A stretch of DNA of 64,000 bases from NCBI RefSeq assembly GCF_056746865.1, contig NZ_CM163382.1. One strand, 5' to 3'. The translations under genes and the position numbers were made by a program. Below the pieces are notes generated by a model that saw only the letters and a list, made by a program, of their open reading frames with translations, did not search any database and was not told the origin of the DNA. This document shows, piece after piece, positions 7,961 to 51,581 of this stretch (the first letter of the stretch is position 1; every line of letters begins with the position of its first letter).

Positions 7961-8323
7961 GGGGCTGATTCTGGATTCGACGGGATTTGCGAAACCCAAG
8001 GTGCATGCCGAGGGGCGGTTGGCCTCGTAAAAAGCCGCAAAAAATAGTCGCAAACGACGAAAACTACGCTTTAGCAGCTTAATAACCTGCTTAGAGCCCT
8101 CTCTCCCTAGCCTCCGCTCTTAGGACGGGGATCAAGAGAGGTCAAACCCAAAAGAGATCGCGTGGAAGCCCTGCCTGGGGTTGAAGCGTTAAAACTTAAT
8201 CAGGCTAGTTTGTTAGTGGCGTGTCCGTCCGCAGCTGGCAAGCGAATGTAAAGACTGACTAAGCATGTAGTACCGAGGACGTAGGAATTTCGGACGCGGG
8301 TTCAACTCCCGCCAGCTCCACCA
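7961..8323 (+). ncRNA. ssrA: tmRNA (SsrA), 363 nt, ending in CCA
   Basis: Starts ggggctgattctggattcgacggg; contains the tag-reading-frame region gcaaacgacgaaaactacgctttagcagcttaa (ANDENYALAA-stop); ends ...ggttcaactcccgccagctccacca. Confidence 0.95.
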
Positions 8324-36940: not shown

Positions 36941-37267
36941 ATGACTAAAAATACTCGTTTTTCCCCCGAAGTCCGTCAGCGGGCGATTCGTATGGTTCTG
37001 GAAAGTCAGGATGAATATGACTCACAGTGGGCGGCAATTTGTTCCATTGCCCCAAAGATTGGCTGTACGCCGGAGACTCTGCGTGTCTGGGTTCGCCAGC
37101 ATGAGCGGGATACCGGGGGCGGTGATGGTGGGCTCACCAGCGCTGAACGTCAGCGTCTGAAAGAGCTGGAACGTGAAAATCGTGAACTGCGCCGCAGTAA
37201 CGATATCCTTCGCCAGGCTTCCGCTTATTTTGCGAAGGCGGAGTTCGACCGCCTCTGGAAAAAATGA
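36941..37267 (+). CDS. IS3-family transposase OrfA (HTH)
   Basis: 108 aa [57 protein letters not shown]...; ends in an A6 run that overlaps the OrfB start (candidate -1 frameshift site). Confidence 0.9.
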
Positions 37268-38154
37268 TGCCACTGCTGGATAAGCTGCGTGAGCAGTACG
37301 GGGTCGGACCGGTATGCAGCGAACTGCATATTGCCCCGTCAACGTATTACCATTGTCAGCAACAGCGACATCATCCGGATAAACGCAGTGCCCGTGCGCA
37401 GCACGACGACTGGCTGAAGAGAGAGATACAGCGCGTATACGATGAAAATCATCAGGTGTACGGTGTGCGTAAAGTCTGGCGTCAGTTGTTACGGGAAGGA
37501 ATCAGGGTGGCCAGATGTACAGTGGCACGTCTCATGGCGGTTATGGGACTTGCCGGTGTTCTCCGGGGTAAAAAGGTCCGTACGACCATCAGCCGGAAAG
37601 CCGTTGCCGCAGGCGACCGCGTAAACCGTCAGTTCGTGGCAGAACGACCTGACCAGCTGTGGGTGGCTGATTTTACTTACGTCAGCACATGGCAGGGCTT
37701 CGTCTATGTGGCGTTTATCATTGATGTGTTTGCCGGATACATCGTGGGGTGGCGGGTCTCATCGTCTATGGAAACGACATTCGTGCTGGATGCGCTGGAG
37801 CAGGCGTTGTGGGCCCGTCGTCCGTCTGGCACCATCCATCACAGCGATAAAGGCTCTCAGTATGTGTCACTGGCCTATACGGAGCGACTAAAAGAAGCCG
37901 GATTACTGGCATCAACAGGGAGTACAGGCGACTCGTATGACAACGCGATGGCTGAGAGCATCAATGGTCTTTACAAAGCGGAGGTAATACACCGTAAGAG
38001 CTGGAAAAACCGTGCAGAAGTGGAACTGGCCACACTAACGTGGGTGGACTGGTATAACAATCGACGATTGCTGGGAAGGCTGGGCCATACTCCTCCGGCA
38101 GAAGCAGAAAAAGCTTATTATGCTTCCATCGGAAACGATGATCTGGCAGCCTGA
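37264..38154 (+). CDS. IS3-family transposase OrfB (DDE integrase core)
   Basis: 296 aa with DDE-type catalytic core (...[30 protein letters not shown]...[10 protein letters not shown]...[15 protein letters not shown]). Confidence 0.9.
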
Positions 38155-40470: not shown

Positions 40471-40941
40471 CCACGAAGGGTGTTGCTTTATAGCGTCTTC
40501 GATACCGGTATCGCCTTCGGTTGTTAGTGTGTATTAGATAAGCATGTTTTTCCGCCCGGAAATTTAAAGAGAGTGAATTATTCGACAGAAACGCTCACTT
40601 CTGGAAACGAACGACAAGCATATAACGTCCACCAAAGCCTCAACCAACACGCAAAACCCAGCCCCCAACAATCAACTTAAAAATCAATCGGATATTAAAA
40701 TCCCTTCCATATCAACTTCATCACCACTCTTTTTGCGCCTTCCCCTTCGCGCAAAAAATCAAAATCCTCAACAAACCCAATCACCTACCCCACCAATTAC
40801 AAGGACGCCAGCCAATCATGATTGGACGGTGCAAGGACAACACCAACAAAAACAGGAAGTTAGCAGTCTCAGCAAGACACCGACCAGACGGTGAGGAGAC
40901 ATAAAAGGATACGCAAAGGAGCCGCGGCTCCTGGTGATATG

Positions 40942-40965
40942 AAAGCCCACAGATGTGGGCTTTTT
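40942..40965. terminator. hairpin terminator next to the ypjA 3' end
   Basis: aaagcccacagatgtgggcttttt, perfect 7-bp stem with flanking A-run and T-run. Confidence 0.5.
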
Positions 40966-40974
40966 CGTTGATGG

Positions 40975-43900
40975 TCAGAACGACCAGTTCACACCAGCCA
41001 CCGCGTTCCACGGGGATTCCACACCGGCACCATGGCTATACCCCACCCCGAGATGTCCGCTTAACGTACTGCTGAATGAGGCTTTAATACCTGCCTGGTA
41101 TATTCCACGTCTGCCCGACAAATCATTGACGAAATTACCGTCATTATTCACCTTCACCCGGTTATCATCGACAAATTCTTTGCGCACAGCCGCCTTCAGC
41201 CACGGCTCAATTTCCATACCGTTCCCCAGACGCATGTTGTAACTCAGCGTTGCGCCCAGTTCACGATATATACTGCGGGTATCGACTGATTTCGATTCCA
41301 TGCCATTGGATAAATGATATTCGGGGTTATCAGCGGTGAACCCCGTTAACGATGCATACGGCGTCAGGTTCCAGTTACCATCCGTAAATCGCATCCCGGT
41401 TTCAATGTGACCGCCCAGCCCGTTGCTGCGATAACTGCCGTTGGCGGCTCCACCGCTGCTCATTTTACCGGCTACGTTACTTTCAAAGCGGTTCAGCTTC
41501 ACGATACCGTCCAGATAGAAACCACTTTCATGTTCCCAGCTGGCATAGCCCCCCAGAGAATAACTGCCCACACTGCCATGTCCTCCACGATCAAAACCAA
41601 TATGTGAATGGGAATAACCCATAAAAGCGCCCAGCGTCGCAATCCCCTCAGGAATATCATTACGGCTATCGATCCCCACCGTCATTCCGGTCAGCGTCTG
41701 CTCAAACCCGGCACCCGCATCGGTGGTGACATTATTACGGGTGTTATACGTCGTCCCCCAGACATTATTGTTGTGTGGACTCGCTTTCATTATGTTCAAC
41801 CGCTCGCGAATACTGTTTAGCTCAGCATCAAAGACCAACGGTAATGTTGCTGCCATATTGAGTACGGCTGCTGTAGAAGGCGTGATGCGATTCTCCGGGA
41901 CGGGTGTCGGCGTTGGAGCGGGAGTCGGGTCTGGTTTCGGATCCGGTTTTGGGTCTGGTTTTGGATCCGGTTTCGGATTTGGGTTGGGGTCCGGGTTGGG
42001 TTTGACATCATTGGTCAGGTTCCAGTTGCTGTTGCCGTCGCTTTTCAGGACATACTCATAGGTCCCAAGATCAACGAAACCGCCGGTATTACCCAGCGTA
42101 AACGAAGCATCCCCTCCCCCTGTTTTCACCAGCGTCATCGCGTCGTCAGACTGAGGGCTGACGCCGGTATCCTGAACAAAGATTTTAAAATTGCCAGTGG
42201 CGTTGTTGTTGACGACCAGTTGATCGCCCCGGGAGTCTGCAACGTTGGTATGCAGGTAGAAATTACCGCTGCCGGAAAGTTCACTGGTGGTCAGCGTATT
42301 GTAGATACCGTTAGTTGTGGCAGGCGCTGCTGTTTGTGCTGATAAATAAACATCACCGTCGTTGAGGAGTAAACTGTTTACTCTATATTCGCAGTTGCTG
42401 GTGCCTGCACAGGAATTATTGCTGTTAAGCCAGACACTGCCCCGACTGGCAGCCGTCAGGTCGGCAAGCGTCGTATCGACGCCATTTCCGATAGTTAATG
42501 TCGCGCTATCGGTAATCCGGACCACCCCTTCAAGTTTAACTGGCGTAACATTATCCCGTGGCGTCATTAACGACAGGCTTCCTGTCGCGCCACTGACCGA
42601 TGCATCCGCCAGCGTACCTGCGTAGACGATTGCCGTCCCGCCAGCGATCAGTAGATCTTCTGCCCGGGCCAGAGCCTGAAACTCATCTTTTGACCGACCG
42701 AGGGTATATTGCCCACCGGAATTAACCTTTGTGGCGAAGTCCTGACCCAGGTTTTGCATTGCCCCACCGTTGCCAACCGTGGAATCGCGAGCTTCGGTAC
42801 CTGCTAATACCAATAAATTACCGCCATTTTCCAGCAGCACATTGGTCGCTAAATTTCCGGCAATGGAAAAGGTGCCGTACTGGTGAGTACCGCTGATTTC
42901 AATACCGTTAGCCGTGCTCGTCTGGAGAGCGGCACCGCTGTTCTGGATGATATCTGTCGCTTTGCCATTATCGTTGACTGTCAGCGTACCGCCTTCATTA
43001 ATCGTTGTTTTTACTGCCTCACCGTTAGCCGAAACTGTTTGTATTCCGCCGTCGTTAATCGTTGTCTCATTCGCCACCCCCTCGACGATTTGTTCGCCGC
43101 CGGTGAGCGTCGTGCCTGTCGCAGTGGCTTTTGTTTTGACGATCTCCCGCCCGCCCGCATTGACCTGTGTTTTGGCGGAAGTGGTGTCTGACTCCACGGT
43201 TAACACGCCGCCATTTGCCAGCAGGATATTGTTCGCCGCATCCTGCTCAATGCTGAACGCGACGCCATCAGCGCGTGTCCCTGTGACCCGCGTCGCTCTG
43301 GTGGTTGCAACCAACGCGCCCTGGCTACTTTGCTGTATCCCCGTTGCGCTGCCTTTCTCCCGCACATCGAGAGTGCCGCCTTCATTAAGCACCGAGTTTT
43401 CAGCCAGACCGCCCTCATTAACTACCTGTGAACCGCCATTAATAATGGAACCTTCCGCTGTCCCGTTTACCATAATTTGTTGTAGGCCTGAGACGATATC
43501 GGTATTGATCGCCTTACCATAATTCTGAACGGTTTGCGTACCGCCATTGATGTGCGTTTTGTCTGTTGACCCACCATCAACAATTTGTTCACCACTTTCG
43601 ATATTTGCCTCAGTGGCTAAACCATATACCGTTTGCTTGCCACCTTTGATATTTGCTTTTTCAGAAGTGGCACTGGCATATATTGTTTGGGTACCAGCAC
43701 TATTAAGTACAGTACCAACATCTTTTCCATAAACATCCATTTTGCCGTTGGCATTAATAATCGTGTCAACTGCCCGGGAACCAGTGACGACTGTTAATGA
43801 GCCAGCGTTTTCCAGCACTACATTTTTAGCTTCTGAATTCCTGATGTAGAAAGCATCACCATAACTGTTGGTTCCTTCGATAAGTGTTCCGGAGGTCGTG

Positions 43901-45549
43901 GAAGCAATTAATGCGCCGCCGGATTGTTGCTCAACATGCTTAGCCTCACCACCGTCCTGAACCTCCAGAACGCCACCATTATTAAGTCTGGTGCTATCTG
44001 TTTTAGCCTCCTTCTGGACAATCAGCTTACCGCCAGCATCAATGGTAGTATTTTTCGCCGAGGTTTTAGCCATTACCGTCAGTTCGCCGGTATTTTCCAG
44101 CACAACATAATTAGCCTCTCCTCCGGTAATAGTGAAGTGAGAGAGCTTGTTGTATCCTTCGATATCAGTCCCTGCGCCCGTGTTGGCAACTAAAGCACTG
44201 CCCGTCTCCTGGTTAACCCCATGTGCAATACCGCCGGTATAGACAATCAGCGAGCCTCCGGCGCTAATATTGCTGCCAGTTGCCGTACCATCTTTCTCAA
44301 CAACCTGCCGGCTCCCAGAGGATATATTTGTCGTGTCAGCTTTCCCGCCGCTCTTGATATTTTGCGTTCCACTGTTGATATTGGTGCCCGTGGCAATACC
44401 ATGATTATTAATATTCTGTGTGCCACCATTAATTATGGTATTTGTCGCGTTTCCGGCAACATCCATAACGCCGCCATTATCTATTCGGGTCGCATCAGCT
44501 TTAGCATTCGTTAAAACTGACATTGTTCCTTTATCTTTAATAATCGTCTTATTTGCCGAACCATATGCGTTTATGTCTAAATGACCACCGTTTTCCAGCA
44601 ACACATTCTCTGCCACGTTATTGTGGATGGAGAATGCCCCTTCACTATTCGTACCGCTCACCGTCAAATCGTAAGTCGTTACTTTTAAAGCGGCTCCATC
44701 GTGCTGAGTAATATTAGTTGCCGTACCACCTCTAACATCAAGCACGCCGCCGGAATAAACTTCAATAACATCCGAGGAGCTCGTGTTATCAACAATTTGC
44801 GTACCACCAGAATAGATCTGCGTATTTTTTGCCGTTGACTTACTATTCAGAGACTGAGTTCCGCCTTCAATCGTCGTGTCCAGCGCACGGCTCTCATATA
44901 CTCTTTGCTCACCGCCATTTTTAATGGCGGTTGTTTCTACTGTGCTCTGTTCAACATACTGTCGCCCACCATTTATGGTTGTGTTCGTCGCCAGACTTCC
45001 TTGCGTGATGTCCTGATAACCAGACTTATTTATCGTCGTACCGTCAACATGCCCCTGAGTTGATACTGACTGGCCTCCACCATCAATGATTGTTCCATTT
45101 GCAGTCCCCCCCTCTATGCGTGAAGTACCGCCCTTAATTGTCGTGTCATTGCTGGTACCACCTTTATAAACATATTGATTGCCACTTTCGATTATCGTGC
45201 CAGTAGAAATTCCTCCGTACTCAATTGACTGTCTGCCTCCATTAATGGTTGTATTATTAGCTTGCCCGTTAATATCGGCATGGATTGATACTAGTTGCTC
45301 GCCACCAGTTTCAATAATACTACTATTAGATATCCCACCATAGACCTCCTGCCGGCCATGGTTGATAATATGTGTGTTATTTGTTGTACCTCGTTCATCT
45401 ACTCGTTGGTTGCCATCTACAGTCTCATCGTTTACCACACCAATAACATTAGTAGTGAAGGCCGCCATCCCGGGCTGGGCATATATTAAGGCAGATATCA
45501 ATAAGGAAAGTACTGAGCGGCGAAAATAATAGGGACTGGTCCTGTTCAT
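40975..45549 (-). CDS. ypjA: AIDA-I-type autotransporter adhesin (YpjA-like): signal peptide, repetitive passenger, Pro-rich linker, C-terminal beta-barrel translocator
   Basis: About 1524 aa from MNRTSPYYFRRSVLSLLISALIYAQPGMA (alternative start MKF at 45558; ORF opens at 45678); repeated GGxQ/VxNxG passenger segments; PNPDPNPNPKPDPKPDPKPDPKPDPTP linker; C-terminal aromatic-rich barrel ending ...VNWSF. Confidence 0.85.
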   Translation of the reverse strand: MNRTSPYYFRRSVLSLLISALIYAQPGMAAFTTNVIGVVNDETVDGNQRVDERGTTNNTHIINHGRQEVYGGISNSSIIETGGEQLVSIHADINGQANNTTINGGRQSIEYGGISTGTIIESGNQYVYKGGTSNDTTIKGGTSRIEGGTANGTIIDGGGQSVSTQGHVDGTTINKSGYQDITQGSLATNTTINGGRQYVEQSTVETTAIKNGGEQRVYESRALDTTIEGGTQSLNSKSTAKNTQIYSGGTQIVDNTSSSDVIEVYSGGVLDVRGGTATNITQHDGAALKVTTYDLTVSGTNSEGAFSIHNNVAENVLLENGGHLDINAYGSANKTIIKDKGTMSVLTNAKADATRIDNGGVMDVAGNATNTIINGGTQNINNHGIATGTNINSGTQNIKSGGKADTTNISSGSRQVVEKDGTATGSNISAGGSLIVYTGGIAHGVNQETGSALVANTGAGTDIEGYNKLSHFTITGGEANYVVLENTGELTVMAKTSAKNTTIDAGGKLIVQKEAKTDSTRLNNGGVLEVQDGGEAKHVEQQSGGALIASTTSGTLIEGTNSYGDAFYIRNSEAKNVVLENAGSLTVVTGSRAVDTIINANGKMDVYGKDVGTVLNSAGTQTIYASATSEKANIKGGKQTVYGLATEANIESGEQIVDGGSTDKTHINGGTQTVQNYGKAINTDIVSGLQQIMVNGTAEGSIINGGSQVVNEGGLAENSVLNEGGTLDVREKGSATGIQQSSQGALVATTRATRVTGTRADGVAFSIEQDAANNILLANGGVLTVESDTTSAKTQVNAGGREIVKTKATATGTTLTGGEQIVEGVANETTINDGGIQTVSANGEAVKTTINEGGTLTVNDNGKATDIIQNSGAALQTSTANGIEISGTHQYGTFSIAGNLATNVLLENGGNLLVLAGTEARDSTVGNGGAMQNLGQDFATKVNSGGQYTLGRSKDEFQALARAEDLLIAGGTAIVYAGTLADASVSGATGSLSLMTPRDNVTPVKLEGVVRITDSATLTIGNGVDTTLADLTAASRGSVWLNSNNSCAGTSNCEYRVNSLLLNDGDVYLSAQTAAPATTNGIYNTLTTSELSGSGNFYLHTNVADSRGDQLVVNNNATGNFKIFVQDTGVSPQSDDAMTLVKTGGGDASFTLGNTGGFVDLGTYEYVLKSDGNSNWNLTNDVKPNPDPNPNPKPDPKPDPKPDPKPDPTPAPTPTPVPENRITPSTAAVLNMAATLPLVFDAELNSIRERLNIMKASPHNNNVWGTTYNTRNNVTTDAGAGFEQTLTGMTVGIDSRNDIPEGIATLGAFMGYSHSHIGFDRGGHGSVGSYSLGGYASWEHESGFYLDGIVKLNRFESNVAGKMSSGGAANGSYRSNGLGGHIETGMRFTDGNWNLTPYASLTGFTADNPEYHLSNGMESKSVDTRSIYRELGATLSYNMRLGNGMEIEPWLKAAVRKEFVDDNRVKVNNDGNFVNDLSGRRGIYQAGIKASFSSTLSGHLGVGYSHGAGVESPWNAVAGVNWSF
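41890..42010. repeat. simple-sequence repeat encoding the Pro-Asp/Lys linker of the autotransporter
   Basis: ggtttcggatccggttttgggtctggttttggatccggtttcggatttgggttggggtccgggttgggt reiterated units. Confidence 0.5.
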
Positions 45550-45939
45550 AAATTTCATCCTCTGAAAAGTGAATACTGAGTAGCGTTTAAGCGACCTTAG
45601 CTTTGCTGCAACATCAGCCCACAGGCACCAGACCAGGGGATTCATCCTGAAGAGACAGCGCAAGTGTATTGTGTTCACCGCTCATCAAAGACATCATGAT
45701 GAAATGATGATATTCCGCATAAGAATGAGGCATTTTTTTAAGACATTGTGCTGAAGGATGATTGGATAAAAAAGTCAATCTTTTCAGGAAATACGGCGTA
45801 TTCTTTTCTTTCGACATTGAAGCCATCGGAAAAATAAAATGATTTACATAATCGTTTCTGATGAATATCTTCTGCTCACATAAAAATCACACAATAACAT
45901 TGAGATTGCAGATTGTTTTACTTTTACAGCTTTCGTCCC

Positions 45940-46200
45940 CTCATTGTTGGGCAAATATTGGTAGAGTCAGAGCACGAAAGTTAATACCACGTTCGCACAG
46001 CTCCTCCAACAGCACGGCAAGATGCCGCATACTGCGCCCCAGTAGGTTCAGTTTGCAGACAACCAGTGTGTCACCTACCGATAATGTCCTGAGCCGTTTG
46101 TTCAGTCCGGCCCTGCTGCCACGGTTTTACGTTGAAGTGGTAACCCTGAGCACGCAGTTCATCAGTCAGGCATGGTGCACCATAACGCTGTTGTTGCTGG
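45940..46200 (-). pseudogene. serine recombinase (Pin/Hin/Gin DNA-invertase family) remnant
   Basis: Reverse translation of 45962..46078 gives [37 protein letters not shown], matching the invertase catalytic-domain segment GDTLVVWKLDRLGRSM...ELRERGINFRSLTD; flanking frames are broken. Position matches pinH in K-12. Confidence 0.5.
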
Positions 46201-46482
46201 GTAAGATCAAAAAACTTTCAGGCAGCTAAGGAAAGTTGAATCAGACATTAGATGAAATATTTCAACCAATTACAGCACCAATTTAAACTCAGTAAATCAC
46301 AGCGCAGATCAAGGGGTTACGTGAAAGCGTAGCCCCTTTTTCTTTGGTAGTAGCAGCAAAATGGTTGTAGTGTAAAAAATAATCCCGTTTAATCAATCAA
46401 TAATACATATTGTTTCAATCTACGTTATTATCTCTTTGTAAAACCTGCAGTTTATTTATCATTGAAAACTGCTTTTAGAACT

Positions 46483-47937
46483 TTATACAAGGGGACGATT
46501 CTCAATGGGACTATCCTCAGGGGAATTTTCCTCAGAGGAACTATCATCAAAGTCATCATCCATAGATGAAATACCATCGAATGGTGCCACGCCCGTGATT
46601 AGTTTTATTTTATTATTACGATCAGTCAAGACTCCATTTAAACCATTTTCGCTGACGGATTTTAATAATTTATCATAACTCTTATTGTCATCAGGCACAT
46701 TAAAAATACACGGAGTATCAACATCAAACAATGACGTTCCCCAGTTCACATATTGAATATCATAGTTACTGAAGTTCTGTCCAGAAAAGAAGCATCCCTT
46801 AAAATCCAATCCACGTAAATTATATAAACTACCCTCTTCTTTTGGGAGAGCAATTTTAATTCTGGCTATCTCCCAGACAAAATTGCCATTTTTGTATTTG
46901 AATACCGTTTCAAGCTCTCCTCCAGACAACTTGACTTCTGGAAATAATTTGAAATTAAACCCTACATTATTATGTGTCAACGTAGATGAACAAAAGATGG
47001 AAAAAGCTTGCAGTGCTGAATTATAGCTATCGATTTTATCTTGAGGCTGCGCTCTTGGTAAAAACTTATAGCAACACTCATAAAAATTAAGTAGAAACTC
47101 TGATGACCTTCCATTTTTATCAAATAATACCCGCTGAAAATGCTGCACAAACTTATTCGTTTTTTCTTGAATATCTATGGTGTGTTCCTTTGACTCTAAC
47201 AAAGATGAATCCTGTTGAAGTGCATTGCTCATCTGGTTGAGGAACAACTGCATTTCTTTCAACTTATCTCCATAGTGACCTTTAACTTGCTGAGAATTTT
47301 TAGTTACAGTTGAAACCTTATCTGTGTGGTTTTCATATAAATTATGTGATTCCATACAGTCATTTGGCGGCGTTTCTGAAATAACACTACGCGTTCTACC
47401 TGGCTGAAGTGAAGCAACATGAAAATCACTTTTTCTTATATTGCCGAATAGGGTCTGTTCATTTCTCTTAGCGCATTCAATAAACTGATCAACATTATTT
47501 TTATTAGATGACAGGTTAATTTCAGAAACCGCATTTTCTTTGTTCTCCAGCTTTAGTTTAACGAGAAGGTCTTCCCACACCGTTTTTTTTAAAAATACTA
47601 CGTCAGGCTCACCATCAGCAACTAACTCTTGATTATTATCAAAGTGTACGTTGTATACTTTTAATTTATTTTCATTAGCATCATATTTAATACGTTTTAA
47701 TTGTTCTCCGGCTCCCATAATGACAAAAGCATTGCCTTCATGATATTTACATTCAGACATCATTTTTTGTAAAATTTCAAGAGCACCGTTATACGTCCCT
47801 GAGGCAGCTTCTTTACAAATTAATTTTATAATACTATAAGCTAGTAACTCCATGGATTTAGAAGATTTTCTTTCATTACAATTTCCACTATTTATAAATG
47901 TGCTAGTGTTAATTTCGTTGCTTTTACTAACTAACAT
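46483..47937 (-). CDS. hypothetical protein with C-terminal pentapeptide repeats
   Basis: 484 aa, AT-rich; five-residue periodicity in LRGLDFKGCFFSGQNFSNYDIQYVNWGTSLFDV. Confidence 0.6.
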   Translation of the reverse strand: MLVSKSNEINTSTFINSGNCNERKSSKSMELLAYSIIKLICKEAASGTYNGALEILQKMMSECKYHEGNAFVIMGAGEQLKRIKYDANENKLKVYNVHFDNNQELVADGEPDVVFLKKTVWEDLLVKLKLENKENAVSEINLSSNKNNVDQFIECAKRNEQTLFGNIRKSDFHVASLQPGRTRSVISETPPNDCMESHNLYENHTDKVSTVTKNSQQVKGHYGDKLKEMQLFLNQMSNALQQDSSLLESKEHTIDIQEKTNKFVQHFQRVLFDKNGRSSEFLLNFYECCYKFLPRAQPQDKIDSYNSALQAFSIFCSSTLTHNNVGFNFKLFPEVKLSGGELETVFKYKNGNFVWEIARIKIALPKEEGSLYNLRGLDFKGCFFSGQNFSNYDIQYVNWGTSLFDVDTPCIFNVPDDNKSYDKLLKSVSENGLNGVLTDRNNKIKLITGVAPFDGISSMDDDFDDSSSEENSPEDSPIENRPLV

Positions 47938-48693: not shown

Positions 48694-48769
48694 TGGTGGC
48701 CCTTGCTGGACTTGAACCAGCGACCGGACGATTATGAGTCGTCTGCTCTAACCACTGAGCTAAAGGGCC
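48694..48769 (-). tRNA. ileY: tRNA-Ile (anticodon CAU, lysidine-modified Ile2 type)
   Basis: Reverse strand reads GGCCCTTTAGCTCAGTGGTTAGAGCAGACGACTCATAATCGTCCGGTCGCTGGTTCAAGTCCAGCAAGGGCCACCA; cloverleaf with CAT anticodon and encoded CCA end. ORF 48590..48787 is an artefact over it. Confidence 0.85.
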
Positions 48770-49328: not shown

Positions 49329-51581
49329 ATGTTTTCTATAAAACCAGGACCAAGAAATTTACCTATCGACAACCCCACATTGTTATCATGGAACATTACT
49401 GACGGGGATCTAAATTCCAAATTAAATACATTAGAATATCTAAACTGTATAACAAATATTATTAATTCTTGTGGAGTTTATCCTCAGGATTTAAAAGACA
49501 GAGAAATTATATCAACTTTTCACGCAGAAAAAGTTATTAATGATCTGTTAAAAAACAATTATAAAATTTCCCTTTTTCCAGATACAACTTACCGAGAGTT
49601 GAATAAAGCAGCACAGCGTAGCATTACAGCGCCAGACAGGATAGGAGAAGGAAAAACATGGGTTTATCAACGAGATACAATGGTTGAAAGAGGTGATAAC
49701 AGCGGTGTTCATCAGTATGGTCCAGCTGAACATTTTACTCACATTATATCTGACAAACCGTCCCCAAAAGATAAGTATGTTGCATATGCTATTAACATTC
49801 CTGACTATGAACTGGCAGCTGATGTATATAATATTAACGTAACGTCACCTACCGGCCAGCAAGAAACATTTAAAATATTAATCAATCCAGAACATCTACG
49901 GCAAACACTTGAGCGTAAATCTCTTACTGCTGTTCAGAAATCACAATGTGAAATCATCACCCCCAAAAAACCTGGCGAAGCGATTCTTCATGCTTTTAAT
50001 GCCACCTATCAACAAATCAGGAAAAATATATCTGAGTTTGCACGTTGTCATTATGGGTATATACAAATCCCTCCCGTAACCACTTTCCGCGCCGACGGAC
50101 CAGAAACTCCCGAAGAAGAAAAAGGTTACTGGTTTCACGCTTATCAACCCGAAGATCTTTGTACTATCCATAATCCAATGGGAGATTTGCAGGATTTTAT
50201 CGCATTGGTTAAAGATGCCAAAAAATTTGGTATCGATATCATCCCTGATTATACATTTAACTTTATGGGAATCGGGGGTAGTGGTAAAAATGATCTGGAT
50301 TATCCCTCTGCCGATATACGAGCGAAGATCAGTAAAGATATAGAAAGTGGTATCCCTGGCTATTGGCAAGGTCAGGTCTTGATTCCCTTTATTATAGATC
50401 CAGTAACAAAAGAACGTGACCAAATCCATCCAGAAGATATACATCTCACTGCAAAAGACTTCGAAGCAAGTAAAGATAATATTTCTAAGGATGAATGGGA
50501 AAACCTCCATGCATTAAAAGAAAAGCGTTTAAATGGAATGCCTAAAACAACCCCCAAAAGTGACCAGGTTATTATGTTGCAAAATCAATACGTTCGTGAA
50601 ATGCGAAAATATGGCGTACGAGGTTTACGTTATGATGCAGCAAAACACTCAAAACATGAACAAATAGAGAGGTCGATAACCCCACCGCTTAAAAATTATA
50701 ATGAGCGGTTGCACAATACAAATTTATTTAATCCAAAATATCAAAAAAAAGCTGTTATGAATTACATGGAATACCTGGTAACTTGTCCGTTAGATGAACA
50801 ACAAATGTCATCGCTGCTTTATGAAAGAGATGATTTAAGCGCCATTGATTTTTCATTGCTCATGAAGACGATAAAAGCCTTTTCATTCGGTGGAGATCTC
50901 CAAGCCCTTGCATCAAAACCGGGCTCCACAATCTCAAGCATCCCATCAGAAAGACGGATATTGATTAACATCAACCACGATTTCCCTAACAATGGTAATC
51001 TTTTCAATGACTTTTTATTTAACCATCAGCAAGATGAACAATTAGCAATGGCATATATGGCCGCTCTCCCGTTCAGCAGGCCTTTAGTTTACTGGGATGG
51101 TCAGGTATTAAAATCAACGACTGAGATTAAAAATGATGATGGGTCCACTCGTGTCGGCGGTGAAGCGTGGCTTAATAAAGGTTGCTCTACCTATCAGCAG
51201 CTCTACAATGAATTCCACGCATTATATATAGATAAAGAAGGAATATGGAGCGCATTTGAGGGTGTATTTGCAACTAAAAATGTTCTGGCCTTTAGTCGTG
51301 GGGATTCTGTGAACATTAATCACTCTCCTCATGATGGACTAGTTATAATAAATAAAGGAAACGAAGAAGTTGAAGGTACCTGGCCTAACAAATTGCAACC
51401 AGGAATATATAAAAACATGGGGAGTAATAGCGTTACCATTATTAATAATAATACACGCAAAAGTATTCCCCCTGGTAAAGTATTTACGCTTAGAGGTGGA
51501 GCTCTAAATATCAATATTCCTGGGCGCAGCGCTCTTCTTTTAGGGAAAACAGGAGAACCGCCGAACTATTTCTATTTGTAA
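49329..51581 (+). CDS. YgaQ-like protein with alpha-amylase (GH13-type) catalytic-domain features, apparently full-length
   Basis: 750 aa, AT-rich; position after ileY matches ygaQ, which is fragmented in K-12. Confidence 0.6.
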   Translation: MFSIKPGPRNLPIDNPTLLSWNITDGDLNSKLNTLEYLNCITNIINSCGVYPQDLKDREIISTFHAEKVINDLLKNNYKISLFPDTTYRELNKAAQRSITAPDRIGEGKTWVYQRDTMVERGDNSGVHQYGPAEHFTHIISDKPSPKDKYVAYAINIPDYELAADVYNINVTSPTGQQETFKILINPEHLRQTLERKSLTAVQKSQCEIITPKKPGEAILHAFNATYQQIRKNISEFARCHYGYIQIPPVTTFRADGPETPEEEKGYWFHAYQPEDLCTIHNPMGDLQDFIALVKDAKKFGIDIIPDYTFNFMGIGGSGKNDLDYPSADIRAKISKDIESGIPGYWQGQVLIPFIIDPVTKERDQIHPEDIHLTAKDFEASKDNISKDEWENLHALKEKRLNGMPKTTPKSDQVIMLQNQYVREMRKYGVRGLRYDAAKHSKHEQIERSITPPLKNYNERLHNTNLFNPKYQKKAVMNYMEYLVTCPLDEQQMSSLLYERDDLSAIDFSLLMKTIKAFSFGGDLQALASKPGSTISSIPSERRILININHDFPNNGNLFNDFLFNHQQDEQLAMAYMAALPFSRPLVYWDGQVLKSTTEIKNDDGSTRVGGEAWLNKGCSTYQQLYNEFHALYIDKEGIWSAFEGVFATKNVLAFSRGDSVNINHSPHDGLVIINKGNEEVEGTWPNKLQPGIYKNMGSNSVTIINNNTRKSIPPGKVFTLRGGALNINIPGRSALLLGKTGEPPNYFYL

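Follow-up and report, generated by a model that had tools for sequence, protein, structure and literature searches.

The fragment of a serine recombinase within 45940-46200 of the window, the whole 64,000-nucleotide stretch of DNA analysed here, is genuine and far above chance. On the sequence and its arrangement, it is very probably an inert pseudogene relic without recombinase activity, orthologous to pinH of K-12, and part of the debris of an older island at ssrA. pinH is a catalogued E. coli pseudogene, already known and non-functional. The detail added here is incremental and comprises the exact extents, the fusion of IS3 to pin, the probable IS3 terminus, and the putative placing of a second ssrA relic (attR2) on a P2-type attP arm. 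The features of the locus, in order of position, are as follows.

40806..40817, plus strand: attR1, an ssrA 3' fragment of the CGCCAGC-----CA type, found by pattern search, the equivalent of psaA.
45550..45928, minus strand: 5' region of ypjA with its upstream module, a paralog of the ycgI/ymgJ autotransporter-remnant locus near minE.
45956..46114, minus strand: pin relic (pinH ortholog), codons ~42-91/94 of a 184-codon e14-Pin-like serine DNA invertase.
46115..46193, minus strand: internal piece of an IS3 relic, IS3 nt ~531-622, InsF codons ~57-89.
46194..46209, minus strand: probable IS3 left terminus (IRL tip, TGATCTTACCCAGCAA), matching the start of intact IS3 at 16 of 16 positions.
46210..46281, plus strand: putative right arm of an old ssrA island ('X'), like the right arm of CP4-57 inside attR (psaA).
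46282..46303, plus strand: attR2, a putative decayed ssrA 3' end (T-loop to CCA), identified from alignments and clear in other alleles.
46304..46364, plus strand: P' arm of a Fels-2/Cartapus-type P2-like attP, a sequence that follows ssrA in lysogens.

Searching by tblastn with K-12 PinE as the query aligned residues 39-91 to positions 46123-45965, with 74% identity and E=5e-22, and blastn with intact pinE matched nt 130-272 of 555 to 46108-45966, with 87% identity and E=1e-48. The relic also matches the Pfam Resolvase N-terminal domain, PF00239, over profile positions 48-100 of 145 (E=2.3e-8; score of 34.7 bits, cut-off of 23.3). A tblastn search of the whole window detected a single pin segment in 64 kb (residues 38-94, 46126-45956) and no further pin pieces, and blastn with intact pinE revealed no second significant piece in the surrounding 900 bp. 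The nearest intact relatives are e14-type pinE genes, with 85-87% nucleotide identity and dS of 0.27-0.30. These results agree with the earlier note, which had recognised a decayed Pin-type DNA invertase from the letters of the sequence and had proposed a tBLASTn comparison with proteins of the Pin type. Its estimate of roughly 38 readable residues was too low, the readable pin stretch being 50-53 residues long, and one minus-strand frame in 45940-46200 can be read across 61 residues. The surviving nucleotides correspond to ~124-280 of the 555-nt gene (~150 bp). Since only these exist and there is no other pin piece, no single frameshift correction restores a gene; a restoration of that kind was what the note had named as evidence against decay. 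In the PGAP annotation, the equivalent of 45965-46123 is a 'recombinase family protein' pseudogene, incomplete and with both termini missing.

The pin frame is closed by a stop codon at 45941-45943 that is particular to the window's allele (TGG-to-TGA). The K-12 frame continues to ~45887, about 18 codons beyond this stop and into unrelated sequence, and K-12 pinH is annotated as 240 bp because the frame there stays open to that point. The 3' break of the relic lies at ~45955-45965 and is followed by ~30 bp of unassignable sequence and then by the upstream module of ypjA, whose upper boundary (45928) limits the downstream reach of the relic. A MAFFT alignment hinted at pin homology below 45965; blastn with a word size of 7 found nothing there, and tblastn extended only to residue 94. 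On these alignments, pin homology beyond ~45956 was rejected. The upstream module of ypjA gave matches of 85-87% nucleotide identity (query 1-329) in records carrying minCDE-ymgJ. A small annotated ORF at 45614-45733 (minus strand, 39 aa) has the same PGAP protein accession in 5 of the 6 other genomes checked.

Judged by the features of the invertase family, the relic retains homology to the catalytic domain only. Codons 1-38 are gone, and with them the N-terminal active site containing the nucleophilic serine (Ser10 in Pin, within YVRVSTxDQ); the homology stops at codon ~91-94 of 184, so that the E-helix and the C-terminal HTH domain (codons ~95-184) are absent as well. PinE of e14, a member of the Pin/Hin/Gin/Cin ('Din') family, is similar to the relic over residues ~42-91 (74% at the amino acid level, 85-87% at the nucleotide level), but is a protein of 184 aa possessing Ser10, the E-helix and the HTH domain, none of which the relic has. 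Within the surviving part, the conserved D-R-x-x-R catalytic motif is lost, KLDRLGRS of PinE being replaced with KLNLLGRS in the window and with KLNRLGRS or KPNRLGRS in 5 of 6 other alleles. The first ~123 nt of the gene, the 5' part where the Fis-dependent recombinational enhancer belongs, are also absent.

The remains of an invertible segment were likewise sought. A search of the whole 64 kb for 26-bp crossover sites of the pix/hix/gix type, using the consensus TTNTCNNAAACCNNGGTTTNNGANAA and allowing up to 3 mismatches, yielded 0 matches; the consensus was verified on the pix site that e14 carries immediately upstream of pinE. In e14, pixR is found upstream of pinE, and pinE adjoins an invertible tail-fibre segment with 26-bp pix sites at its boundaries, whereas the relic has neither the segment nor the sites. 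Repeats flanking the relic within 45300-46800, whether inverted or direct, were limited to short pairs at chance level. The earlier note had taken the relic as the mark of a former invertible or mobile element and had suggested a search for flanking inverted repeats. The sites and repeats of an invertible element were not found, and the mobile-element part of this proposal fared better, with an IS3 relic abutting the pin relic and lying, together with it, in a 5.5-kb block between an ssrA fragment at 40806-40817 and a putative one at ~46282-46303.

On the upstream side of the pin relic, where broken frames had been described, 46115-46209 is an IS3 relic and there is no broken pin frame. By tblastn, positions 46202-46125 correspond to InsF residues 57/58-83 with 81% amino acid identity (E=1e-10), and by blastn thousands of IS3 copies match 46114-46204 with 87% nucleotide identity. 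The IS3 frame is broken by a 1-nt deletion in an A-run near 46128. In the alignment, IS3 homology continues via ...AACGT-AAAACCGTGGCAGCA until the start of pin homology (AGGGCCGGACTGAA...), the two being joined at pin codon 42 within an AG(G)CC microhomology at ~46109-46116. Because it falls within IS3 (~nt 622 of 1,258), this is a deletion junction, not a transposition end. Compared with IS3 (InsE/InsF), the relic shares 87% of nucleotides over nt ~531-622 in addition to the 16/16 IRL tip; ~95 bp of the full 1,258 bp are left, without orfA, the frameshift site, the DDE domain or the right end. The Pfam match to HTH_21 is weak (E=0.0039, below the cut-off), and Rfam detected no ALIL frameshift element in the relic.

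At the other end of the IS3 relic, the IRL tip matches the first 16 nt of IS3 in the correct orientation (E=0.001 alone) and abuts the internal homology at nt ~531, the first ~11 nt of which overlap the terminal part. The IS3 left terminus is thus probably retained at 46209. The 16-nt match could instead be divergent internal IS3 sequence, a reading under which only 10 of 17 positions are identical. The simplest reading of the alignment is an insertion of IS3 that put its left end at 46209, followed by the loss of nt ~17-541 in an internal deletion between the imperfect repeats TTACCCAGCAA and TTACCCGGTCAA (TTACCC.G..AA); this deletion fused the IRL tip to nt ~531-541. No further IS3 pieces were found in the 64 kb besides an unrelated IS3-family element at ~37.2-38.1 kb. 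This element (37222-38112, plus strand) contains the sole ALIL pseudoknot of the window (Rfam, 37222-37338, 121.5 bits) and belongs to a different IS, its InsF-like frame at 37273-38112 having 28% identity to InsF of IS3.

The window is from Escherichia coli, and 1 kb of it is 100% identical to ~100 complete genomes, none of them K-12. In K-12 MG1655, pinH (b2648; NC_000913.3, 2783065-2783304) occupies the equivalent position between ypjA (b2647) and ypjB/ypjC, on the same strand, with the same IS3-pin and pin-flank junctions and ~92% nucleotide identity from end to end, which bears out the positional match to pinH that had been suggested earlier. The two alleles differ in that K-12 pinH reads NRLGR and the window NLLGR, in several further residues, and in the ssrA 3' relic downstream, which is far more decayed in the window than in K-12. 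Of 5,426 complete E. coli genomes, 3,006 (~55%), among them K-12, O157:H7 and O104:H4, carry the full length of a 381-bp block (45880-46260) with 89.5-100% identity, and the count for the flank on the ypjCB side is similar (3,045 genomes). Every copy among the 60 matches listed carries the annotation of a partial recombinase pseudogene, and all junctions are common to the seven diverse alleles aligned (7/7).

Comparison of the relic alleles in the pin frame gave a mean dN of 0.096 against a mean dS of 0.049, or a dN/dS of at least 1, compared with 0-0.08 for the same 49 codons of intact pin genes. The Ecol_316 allele has an in-frame stop in the pin frame, and K-12 and the window differ in where the frame ends. 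The pin frame is under no purifying selection and shows the pattern of a gene that died long ago. Among seven alleles, pairwise diversity averages ~8% in the pin and IS3 relics versus ~4% in the adjacent spacers, an excess that plain neutral drift does not obviously explain.

Outside E. coli, an exact-match scan of representative genome contigs for the IS3-pin junction in other species returned only two contaminant contigs, both of the K-12 type. One is a 539-bp contig (coverage of 0.74) of Terrisporobacter mayombei DSM 6539 and the other a 2.8-kb contig of the Planococcaceae MAG UBA3370; both are essentially the K-12 allele of the pinH locus and almost certainly represent E. coli contamination. 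Among PLSDB records, NZ_CP141089.1, NZ_OL790696.1 and NZ_CP134663.1 (4.8-4.9 Mb), as well as NZ_CP010135.1, which carries minCDE, are chromosomes or chromosomal fragments filed as plasmids, and such misfiled records swell the 'plasmid' matches for the pinH locus. The literature on pinH yielded almost nothing relevant.

On the far side of the locus, ypjCB (46483-47937, minus strand) is intact in the window and encodes 484 aa, whereas in K-12 it is split into ypjB and ypjC. The earlier note had called this neighbour a pentapeptide-repeat gene; Pfam gave DUF5507 and DUF5508 only, no pentapeptide-repeat family matched at E<=1, and no sequence relative was found in the PDB. Alleles differ widely at the 3' end of ypjCB (mean pairwise difference of 0.175). 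Further along, ARAGORN predicted a tRNA-Met (CAT) at 48694-48769 (minus strand), the K-12 ortholog of which is annotated as ileY, tRNA-Ile(CAU). A tRNA-Ile(CAU) is read as Ile after lysidine modification. An open frame of 750 aa at 49329-51581 (plus strand) occupies the position of ygaQ (alpha-amylase-like) and is apparently intact in the window; ygaQ is annotated as a pseudogene in K-12 and is truncated beside an IS5-like element in 160-11H1.

The wider setting of the relic is the integration hot spot at ssrA, which lies at 7961-8323. A ~32.5-kb island (8324-40817) begins after ssrA and is different from CP4-57 of K-12; in a near-identical genome its gene content comprises an integrase, AlpA, a DUF927 protein, helicases, sorbitol-type PTS genes and hxlA/hxlB. 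Its right end is attR1, which is at the same time the left limit of the block containing ypjA, pin' and IS3'. In an alignment with the ypjF-psaA-ypjA region of K-12, homology between the strains resumes exactly at attR1. The ~5.5-kb block (40818-46303) is bracketed by attR1 and the putative ssrA 3' fragment attR2, with the pin relic ~170-350 bp inside attR2 and the pin and IS3 scraps in the rightmost ~350 bp. No cognate integrase or island backbone genes were found in 40818-46303, only ypjA and relics; the integrase near ssrA is part of the newer island. Tandem and decayed islands at ssrA are an established phenomenon, the source for which is reportedly Williams (2003, J Bacteriol 185:1059); that paper may already have described the second ssrA relic of this locus.

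The putative right arm of island X shares ...TTACA..ACCAATTCAGAC.CCGCCAGC with the CP4-57 attR of K-12, with weaker similarity ~75 nt further in, and the likeness to CP4-57 covers 30-75 nt left of the ssrA relic. The ssrA 3' relic itself reads TTCAGACACCGCCAGCTCAACA in 2014C-3061 and TTCAGTCACTGCCAGC-CCACCA in K-12, where it lacks the single T that the CP4-57 attR has also lost. The copy is clear in K-12, 2014C-3061, TUM12368 and Ecol_316, whereas about half of its positions match in the window's allele, and a search of the window for the ssrA 3' end with up to 3 mismatches returned ssrA itself only. In the window's allele, the presumed ssrA 3' relic is thus barely recognisable, and the case for attR2 would rest on the other alleles. 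The 25-bp segment at 46282-46307 is the most variable of the locus, with a mean pairwise difference of 0.275 versus 0.04-0.08 nearby among seven alleles, of which the window's is the most divergent here. Damaged ssrA 3' ends at the attR of P4-type islands have been tabulated (PMC10107115, Table 1, citing Williams 2003).

Right of the ssrA relic, 46308-46364 directly follows ssrA in 160-11H1 and L3_E36_ETEC, at the edge of a P2-like prophage. In the genome of phage Cartapus the final 45 nt of ssrA run straight into the arm, at a point that has the integrase on one side and ogr on the other, and the sequence is also present in the annotated attP of Fels-2, in SopE-phi, in RE2010 and in Klebsiella P2-like phages. 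These matches identify the sequence as the P' arm of a Fels-2-type attP. A terminator scan placed a terminator-like hairpin at 46311-46338 within the arm. The hairpin was considered as the native ssrA terminator and rejected, being contiguous with 45 nt of ssrA in Cartapus and occurring once only in the 160-11H1 lysogen. The arrangement resembles known tandem islands at ssrA, both CP4-57/psaA and those of Fels-2/SopE-phi-type P2-like phages, in its two ssrA fragments, the outer one putative and followed by the P' arm, and in its CP4-57-like arm. In E. coli 160-11H1 (NZ_AP031375.1, 1176515-1192567), ssrA is followed by a P2-like prophage, a P4-integrase island, IS5 and IS3 copies, and then ypjA; an IS5-like element lies just beyond the pin relic, in place of attR2, ypjCB, ileY and the 5' part of ygaQ. 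The locus in 160-11H1 is a further example of turnover at the ssrA hot spot.

Other origins for the fragment were weighed against in-situ decay of an island at ssrA. It is unlikely that pin arrived as passenger DNA pre-fused to IS3, in which case it would mark no invertase-bearing element at this place. Such an arrival would fit the direct fusion of the relic to IS3, whose left terminus is apparently a genuine insertion end, and the lack of other phage-derived sequence flanking pin on the ypjA side. Against it, the junction at IS3 nt ~622 is a deletion junction and not the product of transposition, no second copy of the junction was found elsewhere, the full-length matches among the 60 listed all lying at the ypjA-side locus with the partial recombinase pseudogene annotation, and at an integration hot spot such as ssrA decay in situ is the more economical explanation. 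We give slightly less credence still, as an unlikely reading, to derivation from the invertase of a Fels-2/P2-like prophage, with 45956-46364 as one collapsed prophage. The ssrA prophage of 160-11H1 does include an invertase whose strand relative to ssrA is the same, and Fels-2, Cartapus and 500465-1 have matches to the pin relic as well as to the att arm 190 bp away. The relic is nevertheless not assigned to a P2-like phage, because it is closer to e14-type pinE (85-87% nucleotide identity, dS 0.27-0.30) than to the invertase carried by the P2-like prophage at ssrA (~75-78%, dS ~1.0), and because it is found left of the ssrA 3' relic, whereas the body of such a prophage would extend to the right of the P' arm.

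That the relic retains a function, as a short peptide or a regulatory RNA, is extremely improbable. The retention of the block, with every junction intact, in ~55% of E. coli genomes would be compatible with such a role, as would small ORFs on both strands, one of 29 aa at 45941-46030 (minus strand) and a PGAP 'hypothetical protein' at 46068-46229 (plus strand). The plus-strand ORF, however, is annotated in the window's allele group only, and retention of the block is explained by linkage to ypjA. The alleles have stops and differing ends in the pin frame, where dN/dS is at least 1, which argues against a function; no Rfam family was detected in 45940-46200, and promoter-like sites are no more common than in shuffled sequence. 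The preferred reading remains an inert relic within the debris of an older ssrA island.

From the arrangement only, we infer an order of events and assign pin to island X. In this order, a Fels-2-like P2 phage would have integrated at ssrA, followed by integration of the CP4-57-like (P4-integrase-type) island X into the T-loop region of ssrA. Island X would have carried, or later gained, ypjA and a pin-bearing phage-derived segment, and its entry would have pushed the former 3' end of ssrA, together with the P' arm of the phage, out to the right end of the island (attR2, ~46282-46364). IS3 may then have inserted ~75 bp inside the right end of island X, and illegitimate deletions may have taken out the invertible segment, the P2-like prophage and the greater part of both IS3 and pin. 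Newer islands would finally have integrated at ssrA, CP4-57 in K-12 and the 32.5-kb island here, leaving attR1. The composite would have been fixed before the carrier lineages diverged, with neutral drift afterwards. Genomes representing an intermediate, with a longer pin or an intact IS3 at the locus, were not found.

There is also a slim chance that attR2 is still usable as a secondary attachment site, at which the resident P4-type integrase would occasionally excise the array en bloc. If so, ypjA, pin' and IS3' would leave together, and ssrA would become joined to the P2-type terminator (AATAAATCAAGGGG...); the diversity of 0.275 in the 25-bp stretch would in that case be a scar left by site-specific events that recurred in different lineages, and not the result of drift. 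As it stands, the fixed set of junctions, which ~55% of E. coli genomes share, could serve as a phylogenetic or contamination marker. For the biology of E. coli, the relic itself is a historical marker only, indicating that ypjA sits in what would be the remains of an older island at the ssrA hot spot.
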